Source of the DNA: a virus
Length of the DNA stretch: 64,000 nucleotides
IMG/VR virus record: IMGVR_UViG_3300035701_000011
Location: 1-64,000 of that record
Reading direction: 5' to 3' (one strand)
The notes below the pieces were generated by a model that was given only the letters and a program-made list of their open reading frames with translations, made no database searches and was not told the origin of the DNA. The translations under genes and the position numbers were made by a program. This document shows, piece after piece, positions 4,331 through 48,713 of the stretch; the first letter of the stretch is position 1; the number at the start of each line of letters is the position of its first letter.

Positions 4331-4711
4331 ATGATAAAATTATATCATTATAGCAATAAGGATTTTAAGGGGTATATTAAGCCAAGTTTTTTTGGTTTAA
4401 ATAATTATACATCTGCAAGTAAAGAATTAAGCGGATATAAGCGGATTTATTTTTATGCAGATGATAAAAGTAGAGAGTATTTTTTTAATGGTAGTAAGTT
4501 TTTGTATATTGCAGAGATAAAACAAAATAAAGTATATGATTTAAAAATAGATGTTTTAAATTGTATAGGCAATTTTGACAGCATAAGTGAGTTTATATCT
4601 TATATAAGTAGTAAGGGATTTAAGGGATTTAAAGATTTTAATGGTAAACAAGATGTTATATGCTTATTTAAAGCGATAAAAATAATTGATAAAATAACCT
4701 TGACAAGATGA
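4331..4711 (+). CDS. Possible ADP-ribosyltransferase-like protein, paralog of 5429-5821
   Basis: MIKLYHYS.KDFKGYI.P.FFG.N.Y...R.YFY...REY.F shared by both copies; LYH..YF pattern is ART-like. Confidence 0.45.
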   Translation: MIKLYHYSNKDFKGYIKPSFFGLNNYTSASKELSGYKRIYFYADDKSREYFFNGSKFLYIAEIKQNKVYDLKIDVLNCIGNFDSISEFISYISSKGFKGFKDFNGKQDVICLFKAIKIIDKITLTR

Positions 4712-4728
4712 TTTTTATATGTTATACT
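4700..4728 (+). promoter_or_regulatory. sigma70 promoter TTGACA-N17-TATACT
   Basis: Consensus -35, near-consensus -10 with TG extension. Confidence 0.85.
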
Positions 4729-4781: not shown

Positions 4782-5357
4782 GTGAGGGATAAAATGTTAT
4801 ACAGAGCAAAAAGCGATAAGGATATTGGCGTAAAGGGTTGTAAAGTGGTGGGAATTGGTGATGTTTTTGGTTATGAATTGATACAAAACTTTTTTGTGGA
4901 CAATAGCGGATTTGGTAGTGATGATGAGCCAGCATTGACTTTTAGCAATTTTTTAACAAAGGTTAAGGCAGGTTATTTTTATGGAATTAGAGATGTAGGG
5001 CAGTTTCAAGTTAATATCGGAGAATTTAAAAAAATAGCCAAGCCAAGAGCCGAGATATTAGCCGAACAGGGAATTGTAAGTAGTAAGTTAATAAAAAATA
5101 ATACAAGGTTGACTATATATAAAAATGGCGACAAAGTTTTGAGGTTACATTCTACGGATATAATAAAATGGCAAGGTAACAAGATTATTTTAAATTCTGG
5201 CGGTTGGGATACAATGACTACAAGGGCAAGGTTTAACGAATTTTTACCCGACAGAATATCTATATTTAGAAAAAAAGGGGTTACTTATATTAAAAATTCT
5301 TTAAAATATCCCGACGAAATTACAGAGTTTAGCGACGGAATAGAGATTAACCTTTAA
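4782..5357 (+). CDS. Hypothetical early protein
   Basis: C-terminal LHSTDI...LNSGGWDTMTTRARFN motif common in phage early proteins. Confidence 0.7.
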   Translation: MRDKMLYRAKSDKDIGVKGCKVVGIGDVFGYELIQNFFVDNSGFGSDDEPALTFSNFLTKVKAGYFYGIRDVGQFQVNIGEFKKIAKPRAEILAEQGIVSSKLIKNNTRLTIYKNGDKVLRLHSTDIIKWQGNKIILNSGGWDTMTTRARFNEFLPDRISIFRKKGVTYIKNSLKYPDEITEFSDGIEINL

Positions 5358-5428
5358 TTTTTAAGGCATAGCAAGGGCAAGGTTACATTATTTTAAGGTA
5401 AGGCATACAATATAAGGGGGCGATTAAG

Positions 5429-5821
5429 ATGATTAAATTATATCATTATTCGAGCCAAGATTTTAAGGGGTATATTGAGCCGGGATTTTTTGGGGCTAAT
5501 AGTTACTCTAATAATTCCGCAAGGTTAAGCGGAGTTAAGCGGAGTTACTTTTACCTTGACCGAGCCGGCCGGGAGTATTATTTTGAGGGGGCAAGATATT
5601 GCTATATAGCCGAGATTAAGGAAAGCCGATTATATAATCTTAACATTGACCCTTTAAAACTGGCCGGGCGTAACATAAGGGATATATTCGCTTATATTAA
5701 GCGGTTAGGTTATAAGGGTTTAATCGGCTCTAATGGATATAAGGACGGGGTTATATTCTACCCGATAAAAATAAAACAGCGTAAGACCTTGACAGAGGCC
5801 GGGCGATATGCTATACTATAA
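5429..5821 (+). CDS. Possible ART-like protein, paralog of 4331-4711
   Basis: Clear sequence similarity to ORF 4331. Confidence 0.45.
   Translation: MIKLYHYSSQDFKGYIEPGFFGANSYSNNSARLSGVKRSYFYLDRAGREYYFEGARYCYIAEIKESRLYNLNIDPLKLAGRNIRDIFAYIKRLGYKGLIGSNGYKDGVIFYPIKIKQRKTLTEAGRYAIL
5789..5817 (+). promoter_or_regulatory. sigma70 promoter TTGACA-N17-TATACT
   Basis: Consensus -35, near-consensus -10. Confidence 0.85.
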
Positions 5822-6077
5822 TCAAAAGGGGGTTACAATGATAAATTTTAAGCAATATATCGGAAAGCGGTTTATAGTAAAGGGATTTAATGAGCCGAGA
5901 GAATTAGAAATTGTAGAGGGTTATTTTTTAGGCAATAATAAGCGATACCCGACTTTTAAGTGTAAAGTTATAACCGATACAAAGTATTTTAAGGTGGGCG
6001 ATAGAGAAAATTTTTTGTATAGGGATATAATTAAGGCCGGGCAGTTAGTAAAAGAAATTAAAGTTTTATCAGCGTAA
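5808..6077 (+). CDS. Hypothetical protein (start likely 5838)
   Basis: G-rich RBS before the second ATG. Confidence 0.6.
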   Translation: MLYYNQKGVTMINFKQYIGKRFIVKGFNEPRELEIVEGYFLGNNKRYPTFKCKVITDTKYFKVGDRENFLYRDIIKAGQLVKEIKVLSA

Positions 6078-6087
6078 GGGGGGTAAA

Positions 6088-6270
6088 ATGTTAGACAGAT
6101 ATAGACAGAATTTAAAAGTTGAGGGTAGCAAAGTATATTCTTATAATACTTTAGTAGCCGAGATTAACAGCGAGGCCGGGGAATTGCGTCAATTAGGTTG
6201 GTGGAGTGTAACTACTCAAAAACATATAAATTATGTAAGCCGGGAATTAGGTTTAAAAATAGTTAAATAA
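6088..6270 (+). CDS. Small phage early protein
   Basis: YSYNTLVA...WSVTTQKHIN motif recurrent in phage early regions. Confidence 0.7.
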   Translation: MLDRYRQNLKVEGSKVYSYNTLVAEINSEAGELRQLGWWSVTTQKHINYVSRELGLKIVK

Positions 6271-6286
6271 AAAAAGGGGGTGTAAG

Positions 6287-6592
6287 ATGAAAACATATAT
6301 TGCAAGAGGTTTTGTTTTAGGTAAAAATTGGGGCGGTGGTTTTGGGGCTTATGAAAGCCGAGAAATTAGGGCAAAAAGTAAAGCCGAGTTATTAAAACTG
6401 GCCGAGCAAGATTTAAAAAGTGGGGCGTTAGATAGCGGTATGGGTTTTGAATTTTTAAAGGGGGCAAGGTTGGATATAAAAGAAGTTGACCGGGTTATTG
6501 TAAAGGGTAAAGAATACGAAAGAGCCGAGTATATAACAGAATTTATCGGAAATTTGACAGAAAAAGAGCAAGATTTTTTGTTAGAATTATAA
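6287..6592 (+). CDS. Hypothetical early protein
   Basis: G-rich RBS, packed operon. Confidence 0.7.
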   Translation: MKTYIARGFVLGKNWGGGFGAYESREIRAKSKAELLKLAEQDLKSGALDSGMGFEFLKGARLDIKEVDRVIVKGKEYERAEYITEFIGNLTEKEQDFLLEL

Positions 6593-6742
6593 AAAAGGGG
6601 GGTTAAAAATGAGAAAACCTTTTTATAAAATATCTATAATAGGATATTATAAATTATTAAGATATTATGTTATCGGTATTTTAGCCGATATTAGATTATT
6701 TATATTTAAAAAATGGTATAAAATATAACAAAGGGGGTTGTT

Positions 6743-6931
6743 ATGGGAAATCTTTTTGAATTGGCAGAATTGCAGTTAATAAAAGAGGGGAAAGAGCCGA
6801 CAGAGGCGTTAATTTTAAGCCGGGCGGTTGCTATTAGGCGGTGGTTAGATAAACATAGAGGCATAGCGGACAAGATACTGGCCGGGCGTAAGGTTTATCA
6901 ATATGGGAATAGGTTTGTATGTAGTAAATAA
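6743..6931 (+). CDS. Hypothetical protein, paralog of 13814-14050
   Basis: G.LFELAE..L..E...A..IR.WLD shared. Confidence 0.7.
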   Translation: MGNLFELAELQLIKEGKEPTEALILSRAVAIRRWLDKHRGIADKILAGRKVYQYGNRFVCSK

Positions 6932-6943
6932 AGGGGGTGGATA

Positions 6944-7162
6944 ATGATTAAAGATTTTAGACCAGAAAAAGATTTATTTAATCAAGGTTATAAAGTAACT
7001 ATTTATAAAACTAAAAAAGAAATTACAGAAATTAGTTTTATAAAGAAAACTAAAACAAAAACTTTAGGCGTAAGTTATGGTTGTGATAGTTTTAAGCAAA
7101 AAGATTTAAGAGATGTTTTTAATTTTATAAAAAATAACGGATATAAATATAGTATCAATTAA
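6944..7162 (+). CDS. Hypothetical protein
   Basis: RBS and ORF. Confidence 0.6.
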   Translation: MIKDFRPEKDLFNQGYKVTIYKTKKEITEISFIKKTKTKTLGVSYGCDSFKQKDLRDVFNFIKNNGYKYSIN

Positions 7163-7179
7163 AAAAAGGGGGGTAAAAA

Positions 7180-7389
7180 ATGGCAAAAAAATTTGATTTA
7201 GTAGGGGCAATTATGAGTTATGAGGCCGGGGAGTTAAGAGGGCAAGAGGTTTTAAGGTTATTTAGCGAGTTAATAAAAAGCGGTAAGGCGTGGAGTTTGC
7301 AAGGGAGTTATGGGCGTATGGCCGGGCGGTTGATAGACGAGGGCTATTTATCAGCAAAAGGCGAGATATTAAAAGAGGTTGAGAAATAA
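7180..7389 (+). CDS. Conserved phage early protein
   Basis: IMSYEAGEL...LF..LI.SG.AWSLQGSYGR.A..LI motif. Confidence 0.75.
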   Translation: MAKKFDLVGAIMSYEAGELRGQEVLRLFSELIKSGKAWSLQGSYGRMAGRLIDEGYLSAKGEILKEVEK

Positions 7390-7695
7390 ACTGACCGGGC
7401 GAGTGTAAGGCGAGGCGATAGCGAGGCAACGTGTATATTATAAGGGGGTAATTTAAAATGAGATATTATATAGTTTATTTTACTACCATAACAAGTTTAT
7501 TAGTTTTTGATACTTTTAAAAATGTATTTGAAAAATTTGGCAGTAAAGTATTATATATAAAAGAGGTATAAGATAGAAATTTATTTTATCAAAAAGACCC
7601 GAGAAAATTTTAAAGAAATTAAAGAGTTATATAAAGACCTTAAAAAGAGCCGAAAGGATTTACATAAGTTATTGTAAGACAAGGAGTTATGATAA

Positions 7696-8133
7696 ATGAG
7701 GCAGTATAGATTTGGGGAGTGCATAGCCGAAAGTGTAAAGGTATATAATCGATTAAAAAGGCAACGCAAAAACCCTAAATTAGTTGAGGGGTGGGTAGAG
7801 GTTAGCGACTGGCCGGGTAATTTATTACCTTGCAGAGAATTTTTAGAATTATATTATCCCGATATGATTAAAAAATTAGATAAAGATATTTTATTTGATG
7901 ATTATATTAGAGTTTTACCGCATACTTGGGTTATTTGCGACGGAAAAATTATTGATAAGACCCGAAATCAGTTTGATATTTATGGCGGTATATTAGTTTA
8001 TTACGAAAAAATGAAATATAGACCGAAAGGAAAAGCAAAAGCATATAATATAGAAAATTGGTTTGATGAAAGAGATTATATTATAACAAGGGATAAATTT
8101 ATACATTATCCCGACGAGATAAAAGCAAAATAA
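7696..8133 (+). CDS. Possible transglutaminase/papain-like (Cys-His-Asp) protein
   Basis: GEC near the N-terminus, LVEGW, HTWV..DG.IID.T..QF. Confidence 0.45.
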   Translation: MRQYRFGECIAESVKVYNRLKRQRKNPKLVEGWVEVSDWPGNLLPCREFLELYYPDMIKKLDKDILFDDYIRVLPHTWVICDGKIIDKTRNQFDIYGGILVYYEKMKYRPKGKAKAYNIENWFDERDYIITRDKFIHYPDEIKAK

Positions 8134-8233: not shown

Positions 8234-8262
8234 TTGACAAGACCCGATTTTTATGTTATACT
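8234..8262 (+). promoter_or_regulatory. sigma70 promoter TTGACA-N17-TATACT
   Basis: Consensus -35, near-consensus -10. Confidence 0.85.
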
Positions 8263-8289: not shown

Positions 8290-8685
8290 ATGAGAGCCGA
8301 TAAAATAATAGAGGCAAGACCGATAGCCGAGCAGTTAAGAGATTTAATTTGTAATAAGTATAATCTTAATCCGATAAAAATTAGGGTTAAAGATATTAGA
8401 CAGGGATTTGCTTATTACGATAACCGAGCGATTAGCATACCGATTTGGGCTTATTTAGAGGGATTAGATTATTTTAGGGCTTATGTTTTACACGAATTAG
8501 GGCATTTTATAAATTATGATACTACGGAAACATACGGACATAACAAGAATTTTAAGAGAATAGAAAAAGAATTATTGGCCGGGTTTGGATTAGTGCCTAT
8601 ATATAAGAGAGTTTATATTAAGGCATTAAAAAATGATAAAGGTGATTTAGTATGGTTAAAAAGAGGATATGAAAATGAAATTTAA
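8290..8685 (+). CDS. SprT-like zinc metalloprotease
   Basis: YVLHELGH followed by GHNKNFK. Confidence 0.7.
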   Translation: MRADKIIEARPIAEQLRDLICNKYNLNPIKIRVKDIRQGFAYYDNRAISIPIWAYLEGLDYFRAYVLHELGHFINYDTTETYGHNKNFKRIEKELLAGFGLVPIYKRVYIKALKNDKGDLVWLKRGYENEI

Positions 8686-8899: not shown

Positions 8900-9193
8900 G
8901 TGAAAATGGACAATACCGAAATTAGAAAAGAAATTAAACGACTTAAAAGATTAAAAAAAGATTTGAGGCCGGGAAGTAAAGAACGAATAGAGATTTTTAG
9001 GAAAATTAAAGACCTTAAAAAGCAAAGAGCCGAAATTACCGCAGTAGAGCCGGGCAAAGAGGAATTGATAACCGAAATTTTAAGTATATATGATAAGCAA
9101 AACATTAAGCCGAGATTTGAGGATATAGGGATAGATTTACATATTTATACCATAAAACAATTAGAACTTCATTTAAAAAAGATAAGACCTTGA
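8900..9193 (+). CDS. Hypothetical protein
   Basis: Extended -10 (TGTTATACT 8880-8888) and RBS upstream. Confidence 0.6.
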   Translation: MKMDNTEIRKEIKRLKRLKKDLRPGSKERIEIFRKIKDLKKQRAEITAVEPGKEELITEILSIYDKQNIKPRFEDIGIDLHIYTIKQLELHLKKIRP

Positions 9194-9218
9194 CAGATAA
9201 AAAAGTATATGTTATACT
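9190..9218 (+). promoter_or_regulatory. sigma70 promoter TTGACA-N17-TATACT
   Basis: Upstream of the 552-aa gene. Confidence 0.85.
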
Positions 9219-9241
9219 TTAATTAAAAGGAGTTAGATTAA

Positions 9242-10900
9242 ATGATTAAAAAATATCATATAGAAAATACCGACGAAACTTATTTAAGGATATGGCAAAA
9301 AATAAATTTAGGTAAAGAAATTTTGGTTAAAGAATTTTTTGAGGAAAATAAAGTAAATGAAAGTGATGAGAGTTATAGATTAAATGTTTGTCAATATGAC
9401 CCGAATACCCGACTTTTTTATTTAGGTGGTTTTTTATATTGGGTTACTTCTGATGAGGCAATTTATAATTATCTTGATACAGGCCGGGCGGTTAGTTTAT
9501 ATGAGAGAAGTCATTATAGTAATGATAATATAGCGAATTTTTACATATACAATGATTTACTTATTACGGATAAGGATATAATAGATTTTGAAAATTATAA
9601 AGATAAGAAAAATTTAAGTTTAAAAATTTTATCCGAAACTGATACCGAAAAAGTAAATTTAATTTTTAACGAGGATTTAGACAAAATTAAAAGCCGATTA
9701 GCAGAAATCCGAGCCGAAGAAGAACAGATAAAAAAATCAGAAGTAAAAGAAAAAATAGATAATACACAAGAAGAAGAACGATTAGTCAGTTTGATTAGGC
9801 AATATGATAAAATGACTTTATTAGAAGATACAGAGACAATAATTAAGGATAATTATTTTATAGATAAAGACGAGGGATTTAAAATTGAATTTAAAGATAA
9901 AGTTGTAAAACTTTTTAGTAAAAATGATTTAGTAAGTGAAAGTTATTATGGGGGTAATTTTATACAGATAAATTTTAGAAATTTTTTAGATAAATTAGAG
10001 AGAGTTTATAGTCAAGGAAAATACGCCGAACCGATAGAGGAAAAATTAAAAGGATTAAATAAAAAGTGGTTAAGTTTTAAGATTTATTCTTATGATAAAG
10101 AAACAAAAGCCGAAGTATTTTTAAAAGAAATAAAAATAGAAAATAATGTTAATGATAAAAGTAAAAGAAGATTTAAAGTAAATGGCGTAAAAATGCCGAT
10201 ACAAAAAATGGCTAAAGTATTAGAGTTTATTTTAGCCGGGCGTTACGGACACGAAAGGGAAACGACAATAGAGAGATTAACTAACCTTGAAAAGTATTTA
10301 GAGCAGATTAGGTTATATAGCGGAACGCAATTAGAATTATTACAGGGTAAGACCATAGAAATAACTTTAAGTGGAGTTAGAATACCTATACATTTTAATA
10401 TAATGGCAGAGGATAAAGACCGCTGGGAAATTAGTATTGACGATTTTAAGGTAAAGAGAGATTATACCGCAGTAAAAGATAGTTTTAGGTGGTTAAGAGG
10501 TGGTGGTTTGACCGCTATTAGTAAAATTTGCGATACGCTAAAGGCCGGGCAGAAATTAGAGGACATTTTAATAGGTAAGGTAAAAGGTTATGTAGAGAAA
10601 CGCAGATTAGCCGAAGAAAAGGCAGAGAAACTATTTGCAGAATTTTTAGAAAAGAATAAGACCAGAGTATTTAAAAGAGAGGGTGGTTATATTGTAAAGG
10701 GTAAGTTAAAGAATTATTTAGTTAAGATGAAAAATGACGAGGACTGCGGAGTTTGGAGTTACCCGAATAACGAGTATGTATGTATAAATGAAAAAAGTAG
10801 AGCCGGGCAATATCTTTGTAAGGCAGATAAATTATTGCAGTTTTGTCTTGTTATGCTAAACGACGGAAATTTACGCAACGAAATCACAACGATACATTAA
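9242..10900 (+). CDS. 552-aa protein with C-terminal Cys-containing domain; candidate partner of the Ubl/E1 pair
   Basis: C-terminus AEEKAEKL...YIVKGKLKNYLV...PNNEYVCI...DKLL...MLND resembles (from recall) the domain at the C-terminus of DUF4132-type proteins. Confidence 0.55.
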   Translation: MIKKYHIENTDETYLRIWQKINLGKEILVKEFFEENKVNESDESYRLNVCQYDPNTRLFYLGGFLYWVTSDEAIYNYLDTGRAVSLYERSHYSNDNIANFYIYNDLLITDKDIIDFENYKDKKNLSLKILSETDTEKVNLIFNEDLDKIKSRLAEIRAEEEQIKKSEVKEKIDNTQEEERLVSLIRQYDKMTLLEDTETIIKDNYFIDKDEGFKIEFKDKVVKLFSKNDLVSESYYGGNFIQINFRNFLDKLERVYSQGKYAEPIEEKLKGLNKKWLSFKIYSYDKETKAEVFLKEIKIENNVNDKSKRRFKVNGVKMPIQKMAKVLEFILAGRYGHERETTIERLTNLEKYLEQIRLYSGTQLELLQGKTIEITLSGVRIPIHFNIMAEDKDRWEISIDDFKVKRDYTAVKDSFRWLRGGGLTAISKICDTLKAGQKLEDILIGKVKGYVEKRRLAEEKAEKLFAEFLEKNKTRVFKREGGYIVKGKLKNYLVKMKNDEDCGVWSYPNNEYVCINEKSRAGQYLCKADKLLQFCLVMLNDGNLRNEITTIH

Positions 10901-10912
10901 AAAGGGGGATAT

Positions 10913-11074
10913 ATGGAAGGAAAAAAGATATTATCAATAGACGAAATGACCGAGAAAATAGAGAGATTAGGGCATAGGGCGGTTTGGAATTTGATAGAAA
11001 AGATAGGGAATTGGCAAGACCGAATTGCATATAGACAATTATTCTTTCTGACCGGGGGCAGTTTAGATGATTAG
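10913..11074 (+). CDS. 53-aa protein not in ORF track
   Basis: RBS AAAGGGGG; MEGKKILSIDEMTEKIERLGHRAVWNLIEKIGNWQDRIAYRQLFF...; similar to C-terminus of ORF 20404. Confidence 0.65.
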   Translation: MEGKKILSIDEMTEKIERLGHRAVWNLIEKIGNWQDRIAYRQLFFLTGGSLDD

Positions 11075-11078
11075 GGGC

Positions 11079-11108
11079 TTGACAGATAGCAATAAGGTAT
11101 GCTATACT
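11079..11108 (+). promoter_or_regulatory. sigma70 promoter TTGACA-N18-TATACT for the Ubl-E1 unit
   Basis: Consensus -35 and TG-extended -10. Confidence 0.8.
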
Positions 11109-11143
11109 TATAGTAGAAGATACAAAAAAGAGGGGGTGTTAAA

Positions 11144-11341
11144 ATGATTAGGGTAATAGTATTAGATGAGAGTGGAGATACAAGGTTAGAAGTGGCAACG
11201 ATAGACGAATTAAAGGCAAAGGTTGACTTAAAAGATAAGTTTATTTTTGCTGATAATAAGTATATCAACGAAGTTACTCTTGACGGAATTACTCAATTAC
11301 CGAGAGAAATAGTAGTTACCGAAAGACTAATTGGTGGCTAA
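11144..11341 (+). CDS. Ubiquitin-like (beta-grasp) protein with C-terminal Gly-Gly
   Basis: 65 aa, N-terminal beta strands, ends ...VVTERLIGG-stop, immediately upstream of a ThiF gene. Confidence 0.75.
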   Translation: MIRVIVLDESGDTRLEVATIDELKAKVDLKDKFIFADNKYINEVTLDGITQLPREIVVTERLIGG

Positions 11342-11432
11342 ATTCTCTCGTAAGGGTTGACCTAAACGAGTGGGGTTAGCCGAAGAAGTTATAATCCCAC
11401 TCTGTCTTTATAAAAAATTAAAGGAGTAAAAG

Positions 11433-12023
11433 ATGAAAGATAATCTAAAAATAGCAGTAATAGGATTAAACGGAATAGGTAGTTATTTTGTCAGGGGTTT
11501 ATCCGAGTTAATTAAAAAAGATGTGGCCGGGCTTGACAGAATAAATGTTATGGGTATAGATTTATTTGATTTTGATACCATAGAAGAAAAGAATTTTAGT
11601 TATACCATTTATGATATTGAGCATATTGGAAGAAATAAGGCAGAAGTAATGGCAGAAATGACAGGGTATAAGGCAAGAGCCGAGAAAATAGAGAGAGCCG
11701 AGCAGTTAGCCGAGTATGACCTTGTTATTATGGCAGTAGATAATAATGAAGTGCGAAAAATTGTTTATGAGGCCGGGAGACCATTTATTGATTTAAGGGC
11801 TAAAGGTAAGGCAGTTATGGTATATTTGACACAAAAAGACGATATAGAATACCTTAATTTGACAAAAGATACAGGGGAAAAGGGCGGTTGTCAGTATGAT
11901 AGGGATATAGAAGAAAAGACCATTGAACTTGGAAATCGTGTGGTTGCGGAATTAGGTTTGCAGTATTTAATTGACTATTGTAGGGGTAAAATAGAAAAGA
12001 AGAATACGATTTTAATGATTTAA
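11433..12023 (+). CDS. ThiF/E1-like adenylyltransferase
   Basis: IAVIGLNGIGS, DFDTIEEKN, IGRNKAE, DLVIMAVDN..VR; candidate catalytic Cys in GGCQ. Confidence 0.9.
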   Translation: MKDNLKIAVIGLNGIGSYFVRGLSELIKKDVAGLDRINVMGIDLFDFDTIEEKNFSYTIYDIEHIGRNKAEVMAEMTGYKARAEKIERAEQLAEYDLVIMAVDNNEVRKIVYEAGRPFIDLRAKGKAVMVYLTQKDDIEYLNLTKDTGEKGGCQYDRDIEEKTIELGNRVVAELGLQYLIDYCRGKIEKKNTILMI

Positions 12024-46824: not shown

Positions 46825-47012
46825 TGATTCCAATTGCTTTTGATGAAAATACTATAGATTTATTAGATAAAACAAAAATTGCTTGGACTAAAATGATAGA
46901 AAGAAGTATAATTTCAAAGGTTGAACATATTTTTTTAGCATTAAAATGGGATTTATCACTTATTAAGGAAATTAAACCTAAAAAAGAAAGAAAAAAGAAA
47001 TGCATTATATAG
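46824..47012 (+). CDS. Probable PolB C-terminal (thumb) fragment
   Basis: IAFDE...IAWTKMIERSIISKVEHIFLALKW resembles the PolB terminal ID(Y/W)..(Y/M)I...I...I...(L/G)W helix. Confidence 0.65.
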   Translation: MIPIAFDENTIDLLDKTKIAWTKMIERSIISKVEHIFLALKWDLSLIKEIKPKKERKKKCII

Positions 47013-47749
47013 TTAGTTATTCAGGTGGAAAAGATTCAACTGCGATGCTTATAAGACTTATAGAAGAAAAAAGACCTATAGATGAAATTTTATTTTTTGA
47101 TACAGGATGGGAATTTTCTGCTATTTATTCTACAGTTAAAAAAATCGAAGAATATATTAAAAGACCTATTGTTTGGCTTAAACCTGAAAAATCTTTTGAA
47201 TGGTACATGTATCAGAAATCAAATAAACGTGGATTAGGTTTAGGATTTCCTCGATTTAATATTCGTTGGTGTACAGGTTTAAAGAAAAATACGATTAAAA
47301 CATATTTAAAAGATAAAAAACCATATATTAACTATCTCGGTCTTACTAAAGGAGAAGAATATAGAGCAAAAAGATATGCAGATGATAAAACAATATTACT
47401 TCCTTTAATTGAATGGAAAATGACAGAACAAGATTGTTTAAATTATTGTAAAAATAAAGGATTTGATTTTGAAAATCTTTATAGTTGTATGAGTAGTGCT
47501 TCATGTTGGTGTTGTCCTTTGCAACCTATGACATCATTAAGAGGTTTATATAAAAATTTTCCCGATTTATGGAAAAAATTATTAGAAATGCAATCTAAAA
47601 CTAAAAGTGCTTTTAAAGTGGGTCATATTAATAATAAAAAAGGAAAAGATAGATTTCCTCCAATTTATGTTACAGATTTAGATATTCGTTTTAAAAAAGA
47701 AATAGAAGATGGAACATTTAATAAAAAAATGCAAAAGAAAAATGACTAA
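47000..47749 (+). CDS. PAPS reductase family protein
   Basis: SYSGGKDS, DTG.E, RWCT..K, SCWCCP. Confidence 0.85.
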   Translation: MHYIVSYSGGKDSTAMLIRLIEEKRPIDEILFFDTGWEFSAIYSTVKKIEEYIKRPIVWLKPEKSFEWYMYQKSNKRGLGLGFPRFNIRWCTGLKKNTIKTYLKDKKPYINYLGLTKGEEYRAKRYADDKTILLPLIEWKMTEQDCLNYCKNKGFDFENLYSCMSSASCWCCPLQPMTSLRGLYKNFPDLWKKLLEMQSKTKSAFKVGHINNKKGKDRFPPIYVTDLDIRFKKEIEDGTFNKKMQKKND

Positions 47750-48713
47750 TAAAATTCAAATCTGGGAATTAAAACAAAGACAGTCATTACCTTTAGAAGC
47801 TAAAATAACTTTGGCTAAAACAAGAATAGAACAATTTCATACAAAAATGGATGGTAATGTATGTGTATCTTTTTCTGGAGGTAAGGATAGTACCGTTCTT
47901 CTTCATTTAGTAAGGTCAATTTATCCAGATGTTAAAGCAGTTTTTGTTAATACAGGACTAGAATGGCCGGAAGTGGTGCAATTTGTCCGAGAAACTGAGA
48001 ATACAGAGATTATACGTCCCGAGATGACTTTTAAAGAGGTCTTAGATACTTATGGTTATCCAGTTACTAGCAAAAAGATTGCCAAAATGATTGATACTCT
48101 ACAAAATCCCACAAAAGGAAATAAAGTTATTAGAAATCTTTATTTAACAGGTATTAGGGGAGATGGCAAAAAAGCAACTGGAAGTTGGAAGGTACCAAAG
48201 AAGTGGAGATTTTTAATTAAGGCTCCTTTTAAAATTTCCGACCAATGTTGTGCAGTTATGAAAAAACAACCATTTAAAGAGTATACTAAAAAGACAGGAT
48301 TACACCCCTATGTTGGCACACAAGCAGCAGAAAGTAGATTAAGAGAAATTTCTTATTTACAGTATGGATGTAATTCTTTTAAAGGTAAGATTCAATCCAG
48401 ACCTTTAAGTGTTTGGTTTGAAGATGATATTTGGACATATATTAAGAAGTTTAATTTAAAGTATGCTACCATCTATGATAAAGGTCAGAAAAGAACTGGA
48501 TGTATGTTCTGTATGTTTGGTACACATTTGGAAGATGAACCAAATAAATTTCAATGTATGGCAAAGACACATCCGCAACTTTGGAATTATTGTATTAATG
48601 AAATAGGTGTAGGTAAAGTATTAGATTATATTAATGTACCTTATAAATTATTAGAAAATAGTACAAATGATGGACAACCTGACCATGAATTACCAATTCA
48701 TGAACTGGAGTAA
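47709..48713 (+). CDS. PAPS reductase family protein (phage type)
   Basis: SFSGGKDS, NTGLE, CC..MKK.P, RTGCMFC.FG. Confidence 0.88.
   Translation: MEHLIKKCKRKMTNKIQIWELKQRQSLPLEAKITLAKTRIEQFHTKMDGNVCVSFSGGKDSTVLLHLVRSIYPDVKAVFVNTGLEWPEVVQFVRETENTEIIRPEMTFKEVLDTYGYPVTSKKIAKMIDTLQNPTKGNKVIRNLYLTGIRGDGKKATGSWKVPKKWRFLIKAPFKISDQCCAVMKKQPFKEYTKKTGLHPYVGTQAAESRLREISYLQYGCNSFKGKIQSRPLSVWFEDDIWTYIKKFNLKYATIYDKGQKRTGCMFCMFGTHLEDEPNKFQCMAKTHPQLWNYCINEIGVGKVLDYINVPYKLLENSTNDGQPDHELPIHELE

Follow-up and report, generated by a model that had tools for sequence, protein, structure and literature searches.

A small group of genes in an uncultured bacteriophage may well specify a minimal, virus-encoded system for the transfer of a ubiquitin-like protein (Ubl), in which the Ubl would pass from an activating enzyme (E1) to a cysteine residue, Cys514, of a domain resembling conjugating enzymes (E2) and from there to target proteins. 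We regard the chances of this reading, which draws on sequences and structural models, as about even. The phage is the IMG/VR virus record IMGVR_UViG_3300035701_000011, which is 97,145 bp long and has direct terminal repeats. The stretch analyzed here, referred to as the window, is its first 64 kb (positions 1 to 64,000). Three genes on the + strand of the window are concerned: that for a 552-residue partner protein, which has a C-terminal Cys domain (9242-10900), that for a 65-residue beta-grasp Ubl ending in LIGG-stop (11144-11341), and that for a 196-residue minimal ThiF/E1-like protein, or mini-E1 (11433-12023). All three open reading frames (ORFs) had been placed at these positions by an initial annotation of the window and were found there. 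This trio of genes is kept as a set even in viruses that are only very remotely related, which makes protein tagging by the phage itself probable.

The linkage of these genes was examined in 70 loci retrieved by scanning IMG/VR with an E1 alignment and in one GTDB contig (L072), and all ORFs of these loci were searched with hidden Markov models. Among 44 loci with a mini-E1 of ~185-210 residues, 42 encode a protein that ends in the Cys domain, and in one of the remaining two the sequence breaks off just upstream. This co-occurrence bears out a remark in the initial annotation that small proteins ending in GG often neighbor such a C-terminal domain in other phages. A Ubl gene was visible within the fetched DNA in ~30 of the mini-E1 loci. 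At the 28 loci that encode larger E1s of other phages (L044-L071), neither a Cys-domain partner nor a Ubl was found. The gene order is partner, 53-residue ORF, Ubl and E1 in the clade of the window phage; partner, Ubl, JAB protease and E1 in L072; and, in a marine clade, Ubl followed 1-3 kb further on by partner, a zinc-ribbon/helix-turn-helix (HTH) protein, E1 and JAB. Thus, the gene-neighborhood check that the initial annotation had proposed for the trio shows linkage kept across three very divergent clades with differing gene orders. Chance adjacency of the three genes can be ruled out because their linkage is conserved across clades, and we conclude with high confidence that they constitute a conserved functional module. 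In the neighborhoods inspected, the homologous loci are surrounded by replication and transcription genes and are not located beside sulfur-transfer pathways.

The distribution of JAB genes was also recorded. The JAB of L072 matched Pfam Prok-JAB above the cut-off (E 7.8e-8). In the marine clade, the JAB match is sub-threshold, the protein contains an HxH..S..D motif, and the Ubls mostly carry one or two residues after GG. Profile searches found no JAB in the 97-kb phage record, in which the Ubl ends at GG, and no Pfam E2 match was obtained, in agreement with the earlier statement that neither a recognizable E2 nor a JAB is nearby. On L072 (PWNH01000053.1, 1-9908), a sigma-70 gene (5072-6004) and a gene for a family A DNA polymerase, PolA (6017-7816), lie beside the partner-Ubl-JAB-E1 operon; this contig was binned in a Methanomassiliicoccaceae metagenome-assembled genome and looks like a mis-binned bacteriophage contig. 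In the marine viruses from IMG/VR (L004-L043), the gene between those for the Cys-domain protein and the E1 encodes a protein of 266-329 residues with a TFIIB-type zinc ribbon, whose Pfam match (E 1.4e-6) falls just below the cut-off, and an HTH; genes for a GroEL-like protein and for a ribonucleotide reductase are close by.

The partner protein consists of a virus-only N-terminal region and the C-terminal Cys domain (residues 436-552; 10547-10897). Its 55 homologues, which are 37-79% identical, have no Pfam family, and several of them share long contigs with E1 and Ubl. A model of the whole protein (predicted local distance difference test score, pLDDT, 81) retrieved nothing meaningful from the PDB by Foldseek. 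Against BFVD, the same program aligned three marine viral proteins of 416-452 residues over most of their length (E ~1e-8). In the model, the Cys domain is built of a long helix, a four-strand meander, a Tyr-Pro segment (YP..Y-x-Cys514), a short strand that bears Cys514, and two helices. When residues 451-552 were compared with 48,161 chains by a method independent of Foldseek, proteins of the E2, RWD and UEV types dominated, accounting for ~30 of the best 50 rows, and a second structural search of the partner again returned RWD/UEV-type proteins. The modeled Cys domain may loosely be called UBC/RWD-like. Cys514 is located 7 residues past strand 4 (502-507) and 13 residues before the next helix (527-539). 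This would correspond to the position of the catalytic Cys of E2s in UBC folds.

The initial annotation had noted a YVCI motif and three further cysteines in this C-terminal region. These are present as described, and Cys514 of the YVCI motif (codon 10781-10783) is the sole invariant one, being invariant in alignments A3 and A4 and nearly so in A5. Across the three clades, in which identity to the distant viruses drops to ~20%, the residues conserved in the domain are G487, C514, N540-D541 and T550; no lysine is invariant. A Cys-domain profile recovered 255 clusters at 50% identity among 1.84 billion representatives, with Cys514 nearly invariant. Most of these proteins are 370-480 residues long and carry the domain C-terminally; lengths of 530-700 residues occur in some, and a few are stand-alone domains of ~110-120 residues. 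In the ESM Atlas, residues 436-552 corresponded to a single unnamed cluster (0.85), an uninformative match. DUF7737 (PF24879) matched the same ~70-90 residues in 8 of 30 sampled Cys-domain relatives and in the L072 protein (E 6.5e-5 to 0.08), suggesting that the Cys domain is related to this family. The scores of these relatives, 13-23 bits, are all under the 27-bit cut-off and point to distant kinship, not to membership by score. Profile searches revealed no DUF7737 match in the window partner or in its genome, and a search of 201 Thermoplasmatota genomes did not detect DUF7737 either.

The initial annotation had taken the 65-residue protein to be a beta-grasp protein with a conserved GG end. 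An AlphaFold model computed from the homologue alignment (pLDDT 70.7) has the topology beta-beta-alpha-beta-beta-(alpha)-beta, in agreement with this assignment, and structure searches matched only ubiquitin, MoaD and TtuB-type folds. We found 48 homologues (69-100% identity); the 24 of these that were aligned as close homologues all end in GG-stop. The window Ubl has Arg-Leu-Ile-Gly-Gly as its last five residues. In the other clades, GG is followed by 0-2 residues in ~27 marine-virus homologues, and the L072 protein ends in IMGG-stop.

The 196-residue protein matched Pfam ThiF (PF00899) with an E value of 4.2e-10 and 39.6 bits, above the cut-off of 28.1 bits (38.3 bits in the search of its own genome). 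The best NCBIfam model was PRTRC_ThiF (TIGR03736; E 1.7e-11, below its cut-off), and in PADLOC the protein matched "E1-E2" (Cap2-like) models (E 5.6e-7) over the E1 Rossmann part only. A profile of the family matched NAE, UBA5, UBA6, Cap2, Uba4, SAE2, MoeB, ThiF, MccB and BubCD in the PDB, matches that by sequence comparison fall to conjugating and sulfur-carrier kinds alike. All 92 homologues are metagenomic, and nearly all are ~195-200 residues long, with a few shorter fragments. We aligned 14 members from the three clades, which are 25-30% identical. The glycine-rich nucleotide loop, the DxD after strand 2, the conserved Lys and the Mg-binding Asp of the DN motif expected of an E1 are present, and the residues invariant across the clades are those of the GxGGIxS loop (G11, G14, I15, S17), D46, D48, E51-E52-K53-N54, K69, D103-N104, R108, D120, R122 and C153-Q154. 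The Cys reported earlier in a GGCQ motif is thus Cys153 (codon 11889-11891), which is invariant. From the family matches, an MccB-type role in the synthesis of a peptide made on ribosomes and modified post-translationally (RiPP) was also conceivable; it was rejected, the candidate substrate being a folded beta-grasp protein that ends in GG and not an Asn-ending peptide.

With the E1 and the 552-residue protein of the window clade as queries, tblastn yielded no match in GenBank phages. Longer ThiF-like genes (336-383 residues) do occur in cultured crAss-like phages, namely Bacteroides phage DAC15 (L076; 5551-7660, 10046-10342) and Kehishuvirus (L077; 5265-7654). The Kehishuvirus gene directly follows an annotated metalloprotease with a JAB-type HxH motif, and gp056 of DAC15 ends in ...AIIGGYED, which resembles a masked Ubl tail. 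Neither locus gave a match to the Ubl or Cys-domain profiles.

The window has a GC content of ~27%, and almost every gene is on the + strand; the phage encodes a replication set comprising a clamp loader, an Mre11-like nuclease, a primase, a RecA/UvsX-like recombinase and a family B polymerase. Strong promoters had been reported ahead of the 552-residue gene and the Ubl gene, and both sequences are indeed 11/12 matches to the sigma-70 consensus with the extended TG: TTGACA-17-TATACT at 9190-9218 (+) for the partner gene, and TTGACA-18-TATACT at 11079-11108 (+) for the Ubl and E1 genes. They are two of five near-identical promoters (TTGACA, 17-18 nt, TATG[TC]TATACT) on the + strand, the others being at 4700-4728, 5789-5817 and 8234-8262. 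The five are restricted to 4.7-11.1 kb, with none elsewhere in the 64 kb and a chance expectation of 0.32, and judged by their sequences they are a distinct class of early promoters for a bacterial host polymerase. Shine-Dalgarno sequences are found 5' of the ATG codons of the partner (AAAGGAG; ATG at 9242) and of the Ubl (GAGGGGG; ATG at 11144). Promoters and Shine-Dalgarno sites together fit genes that are transcribed early by the polymerase of a bacterial host, and early expression of the module had been predicted in the initial annotation. An archaeal host for the phage was considered and rejected because of the sigma-70 promoters, their extended -10 elements and the Shine-Dalgarno sites.

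Downstream of the partner gene and ahead of the Ubl promoter is a conserved 53-residue ORF (10913-11074, +), which was absent from the initial annotation and has the C-terminal end ...FFLTGGSLDD. It might be a fourth component of the module. Its homologues, with the position kept, occur in loci L002 and L003 only, and domain, NCBIfam and PADLOC profile searches, including Pfam, gave no family match. Just upstream of the module, and behind an early promoter of its own, lies a 131-residue ORF with an HELGH motif (8290-8685, +); its Pfam SprT-like match is sub-threshold (E 0.0011), and a similar ORF is present in L002.

We propose that these genes would work as follows. The components would be produced early in infection by the host RNA polymerase, with the Ubl made so that its Gly-Gly is already exposed. 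The E1, most likely a ThiF-type homodimer, would bind ATP and adenylate Gly65 of the Ubl. The activated tag would then be passed, possibly via Cys153 of the E1, to Cys514 of the UBC/RWD-shaped domain, while the virus-specific N-terminal part of the partner probably selects the target or keeps the complex assembled. Host or phage proteins would be the final acceptors. In related viruses, the JAB would trim the one or two residues past GG and may remove the tag; in the clade of the window phage, the JAB would have been lost and the mature tag would be encoded directly. Co-folding of E1, Ubl and residues 436-552 gave a score of 0.76 and a control in which the E1 was replaced gave 0.80, a result that counts neither for nor against binding.

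Several observations weigh against this proposal. No Pfam E2 family was found for the 552-residue protein at E values up to 1, nor any E2 family for 30 Cys-domain relatives at E up to 0.01, and profile searches of the PDB with Cys-domain alignments A4 and A5 yielded chance-level matches only, none of them an E2. The HPN motif is missing from the Cys domain, which has YPN in the window clade only and GP-I-C-I-D-N in the marine clade. The ATP-binding motifs of the E1 had been described as intact, and this stands for the nucleotide loop and the DN..R residues, but not for the canonical Arg of NLxRQ, which is replaced by Tyr at position 57 in all relatives aligned; the invariant Lys53, adjoining Asn54, may compensate for it. 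Cys153 lies 50 residues past D103, and it cannot be mapped to the crossover-loop Cys of E1s because all PDB alignments end near profile position 115.

Other unfavorable points bear on what the Ubl carries. Conserved cysteines in both E1 and partner suit a persulfide relay equally well, and a JAB beside an E1 and a Ubl is also found in sulfur-carrier systems, sets of these three genes being known from sulfur assimilation operons (Iyer et al. 2006, PMC1779556). The adenylated Ubl could thus be converted to a thiocarboxylate, with the E1 and partner cysteines relaying the persulfide, and thiolate, for example, tRNA, DNA or a cofactor without any protein being tagged. By Z score, the Ubl is structurally closest to MoaD and TtuB, both of them sulfur carriers, and the E1, which is in the small ThiF/MoeB size class, matches ThiF, MoeB and Uba4. 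Two adjacent PAPS-reductase/PP-loop-like genes (PF01507; E 1.4e-11 and 6.5e-26) are located at 47000-48713 (+), by the polymerase region. The statement of the initial annotation that no thiamine, molybdopterin or tRNA-thiolation genes are nearby holds for the neighborhoods inspected, in which no sulfur-transfer pathway was seen, but must be set beside this gene pair. However, the pair is 36 kb away from the module and has no counterpart near it in the 70 other loci. The 97-kb record yielded no rhodanese, and ThiG, MoaE and TtuA-type genes were not seen in the inspected neighborhoods of the three clades, in a non-exhaustive scan. Moreover, the Cys domain of the constant partner is UBC/RWD-like in the models, not rhodanese-like. 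The sulfur-carrier alternative is therefore weakened, and we consider it unlikely.

A protein tag could also be attached without catalysis by the partner, which would then be an acceptor or would bind the Ubl as an adaptor in the manner of RWD or UEV domains; the E1 alone would activate and transfer the tag to the partner or to recruited targets, as in sampylation and urmylation. Ubl systems that lack an E2 do exist, namely SAMP/UbaA and Urm1/Uba4. The non-catalytic RWD and UEV folds scored as well as true E2s in the structural comparison, and the lack of HPN points in the same direction. Yet a single Cys has been kept in viruses with ~20% identity in the domain and, nearly without exception, across the 255 clusters, which would be difficult to account for if the domain did nothing but bind, and an acceptor role is not favored by an alignment without an invariant Lys. 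We consider a non-enzymatic partner unlikely, far less probable than the proposed transfer via Cys514 and somewhat less so than a sulfur-carrier role. Least probable, in our estimate, is that the phage makes no conjugates of its own and uses the Ubl or E1 as a decoy that competes with or poisons host Ubl-based immunity such as Bil, Bub or CBASS Cap2. Such a role would suit a module among early genes behind host-type promoters, an E1 that in PADLOC comes close to the E1 domains of Cap2 and Bil, and the antiphage activity of bacterial E1/E2 systems (PMC10557695, PMC11601596). To act as a decoy, however, the module would not require an activating enzyme and a one-Cys partner that are both conserved, or the JAB of its relatives, and here the complete set of enzymes has persisted across very great distances. 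No host system can be named as its counterpart.

If the module is a transfer system, its closest counterparts are encoded by cells. Bacterial operons with Ubl, E1, E2 and JAB genes were predicted by Iyer et al. 2006 (PMC1779556), and Bil and Bub have been characterized as host systems (PMC10557695, PMC11601596). BilABCD (Ubl, E2, JAB and E1; operon classes 6c/6d of PMC1779556; PMC10557695) likewise encodes together a small GG-type Ubl, a ThiF-like E1 and a one-Cys UBC-like partner, with a JAB as in the relatives of the phage, and the bacterial E2-like proteins are also without the classical His of HPN (PMC1779556). In contrast to Bil, the phage components are virus-encoded, the E1 is a 196-residue core without extra domains, and no JAB occurs in the window clade. 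Furthermore, the phage Cys domain is not recognized by the Pfam or PADLOC E2 models and ends a 552-residue virus-only protein, and the PADLOC BilD match of the phage E1 is marginal (E 0.0092). CBASS Cap2/Cap3 shares with the phage the logic of E1, E2-like Cys and JAB, and the phage E1 domain is near PADLOC "E1-E2" and Cap2 in the PDB; Cap2 differs in being a host-encoded E2-E1 fusion that conjugates the CD-NTase C-terminus rather than a free Ubl. The phage module does not belong to Bil or CBASS Cap2, in which a host-encoded E1 comes with a recognized E2, fused or adjacent, and a JAB; here, the element is viral and carries terminal repeats.

Resemblance to other small E1 systems is also partial. 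The archaeal sampylation system (SAMP1-3/UbaA/HvJAMM1) and Thermus TtuB/TtuC can potentially serve both in conjugation and in the transfer of sulfur. They share with the phage a small beta-grasp protein with free GG and a small MoeB/ThiF-type E1, and with its relatives a JAMM/JAB protease. Unlike the phage, in which the Cys-bearing third protein is as conserved as the E1, they have no E2-like partner and are part of the sulfur metabolism of cells. PRTRC ThiF (TIGR03736), the best-scoring named model, is a small E1 of mobile elements; the phage E1 reached 44 bits against a cut-off of 144.75, and no other PRTRC model matched the neighboring genes. In the literature, we found no paper describing a virus-encoded set of mini-E1, Ubl and Cys-domain partner, and no paper mentioning DUF7737.

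At present, E1/E2/Ubl systems of prokaryotes are seen either as sulfur carriers or as defenses of the host, such as Bil, Bub and CBASS Cap2. On a broader scale, large tailed viruses of bacteria and archaea might share an ancient Ubl kit, consisting of a mini-E1, a GG-ending Ubl and a new, DUF7737-type E2-like Cys domain that forms the end of a virus-specific protein for targeting, by which host or viral proteins would be tagged covalently early in infection; this extension is tentative, and we think it somewhat more doubtful than probable. If it is true, the tagging of proteins with Ubls in conflicts among prokaryotes and their viruses would be a viral weapon too, and not the host's alone. That the Cys domain spreads over 255 clusters, with a sub-threshold link to DUF7737, points to a large family that has gone unstudied. 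A 196-residue E1 core working with a Cys domain that no E2 model recognizes would widen the known range of Ubl chemistry, and studies of mechanism would gain a system of very small size. The kit also raises the question of what advantage the phage would draw from tagging proteins when an infection is only minutes old.

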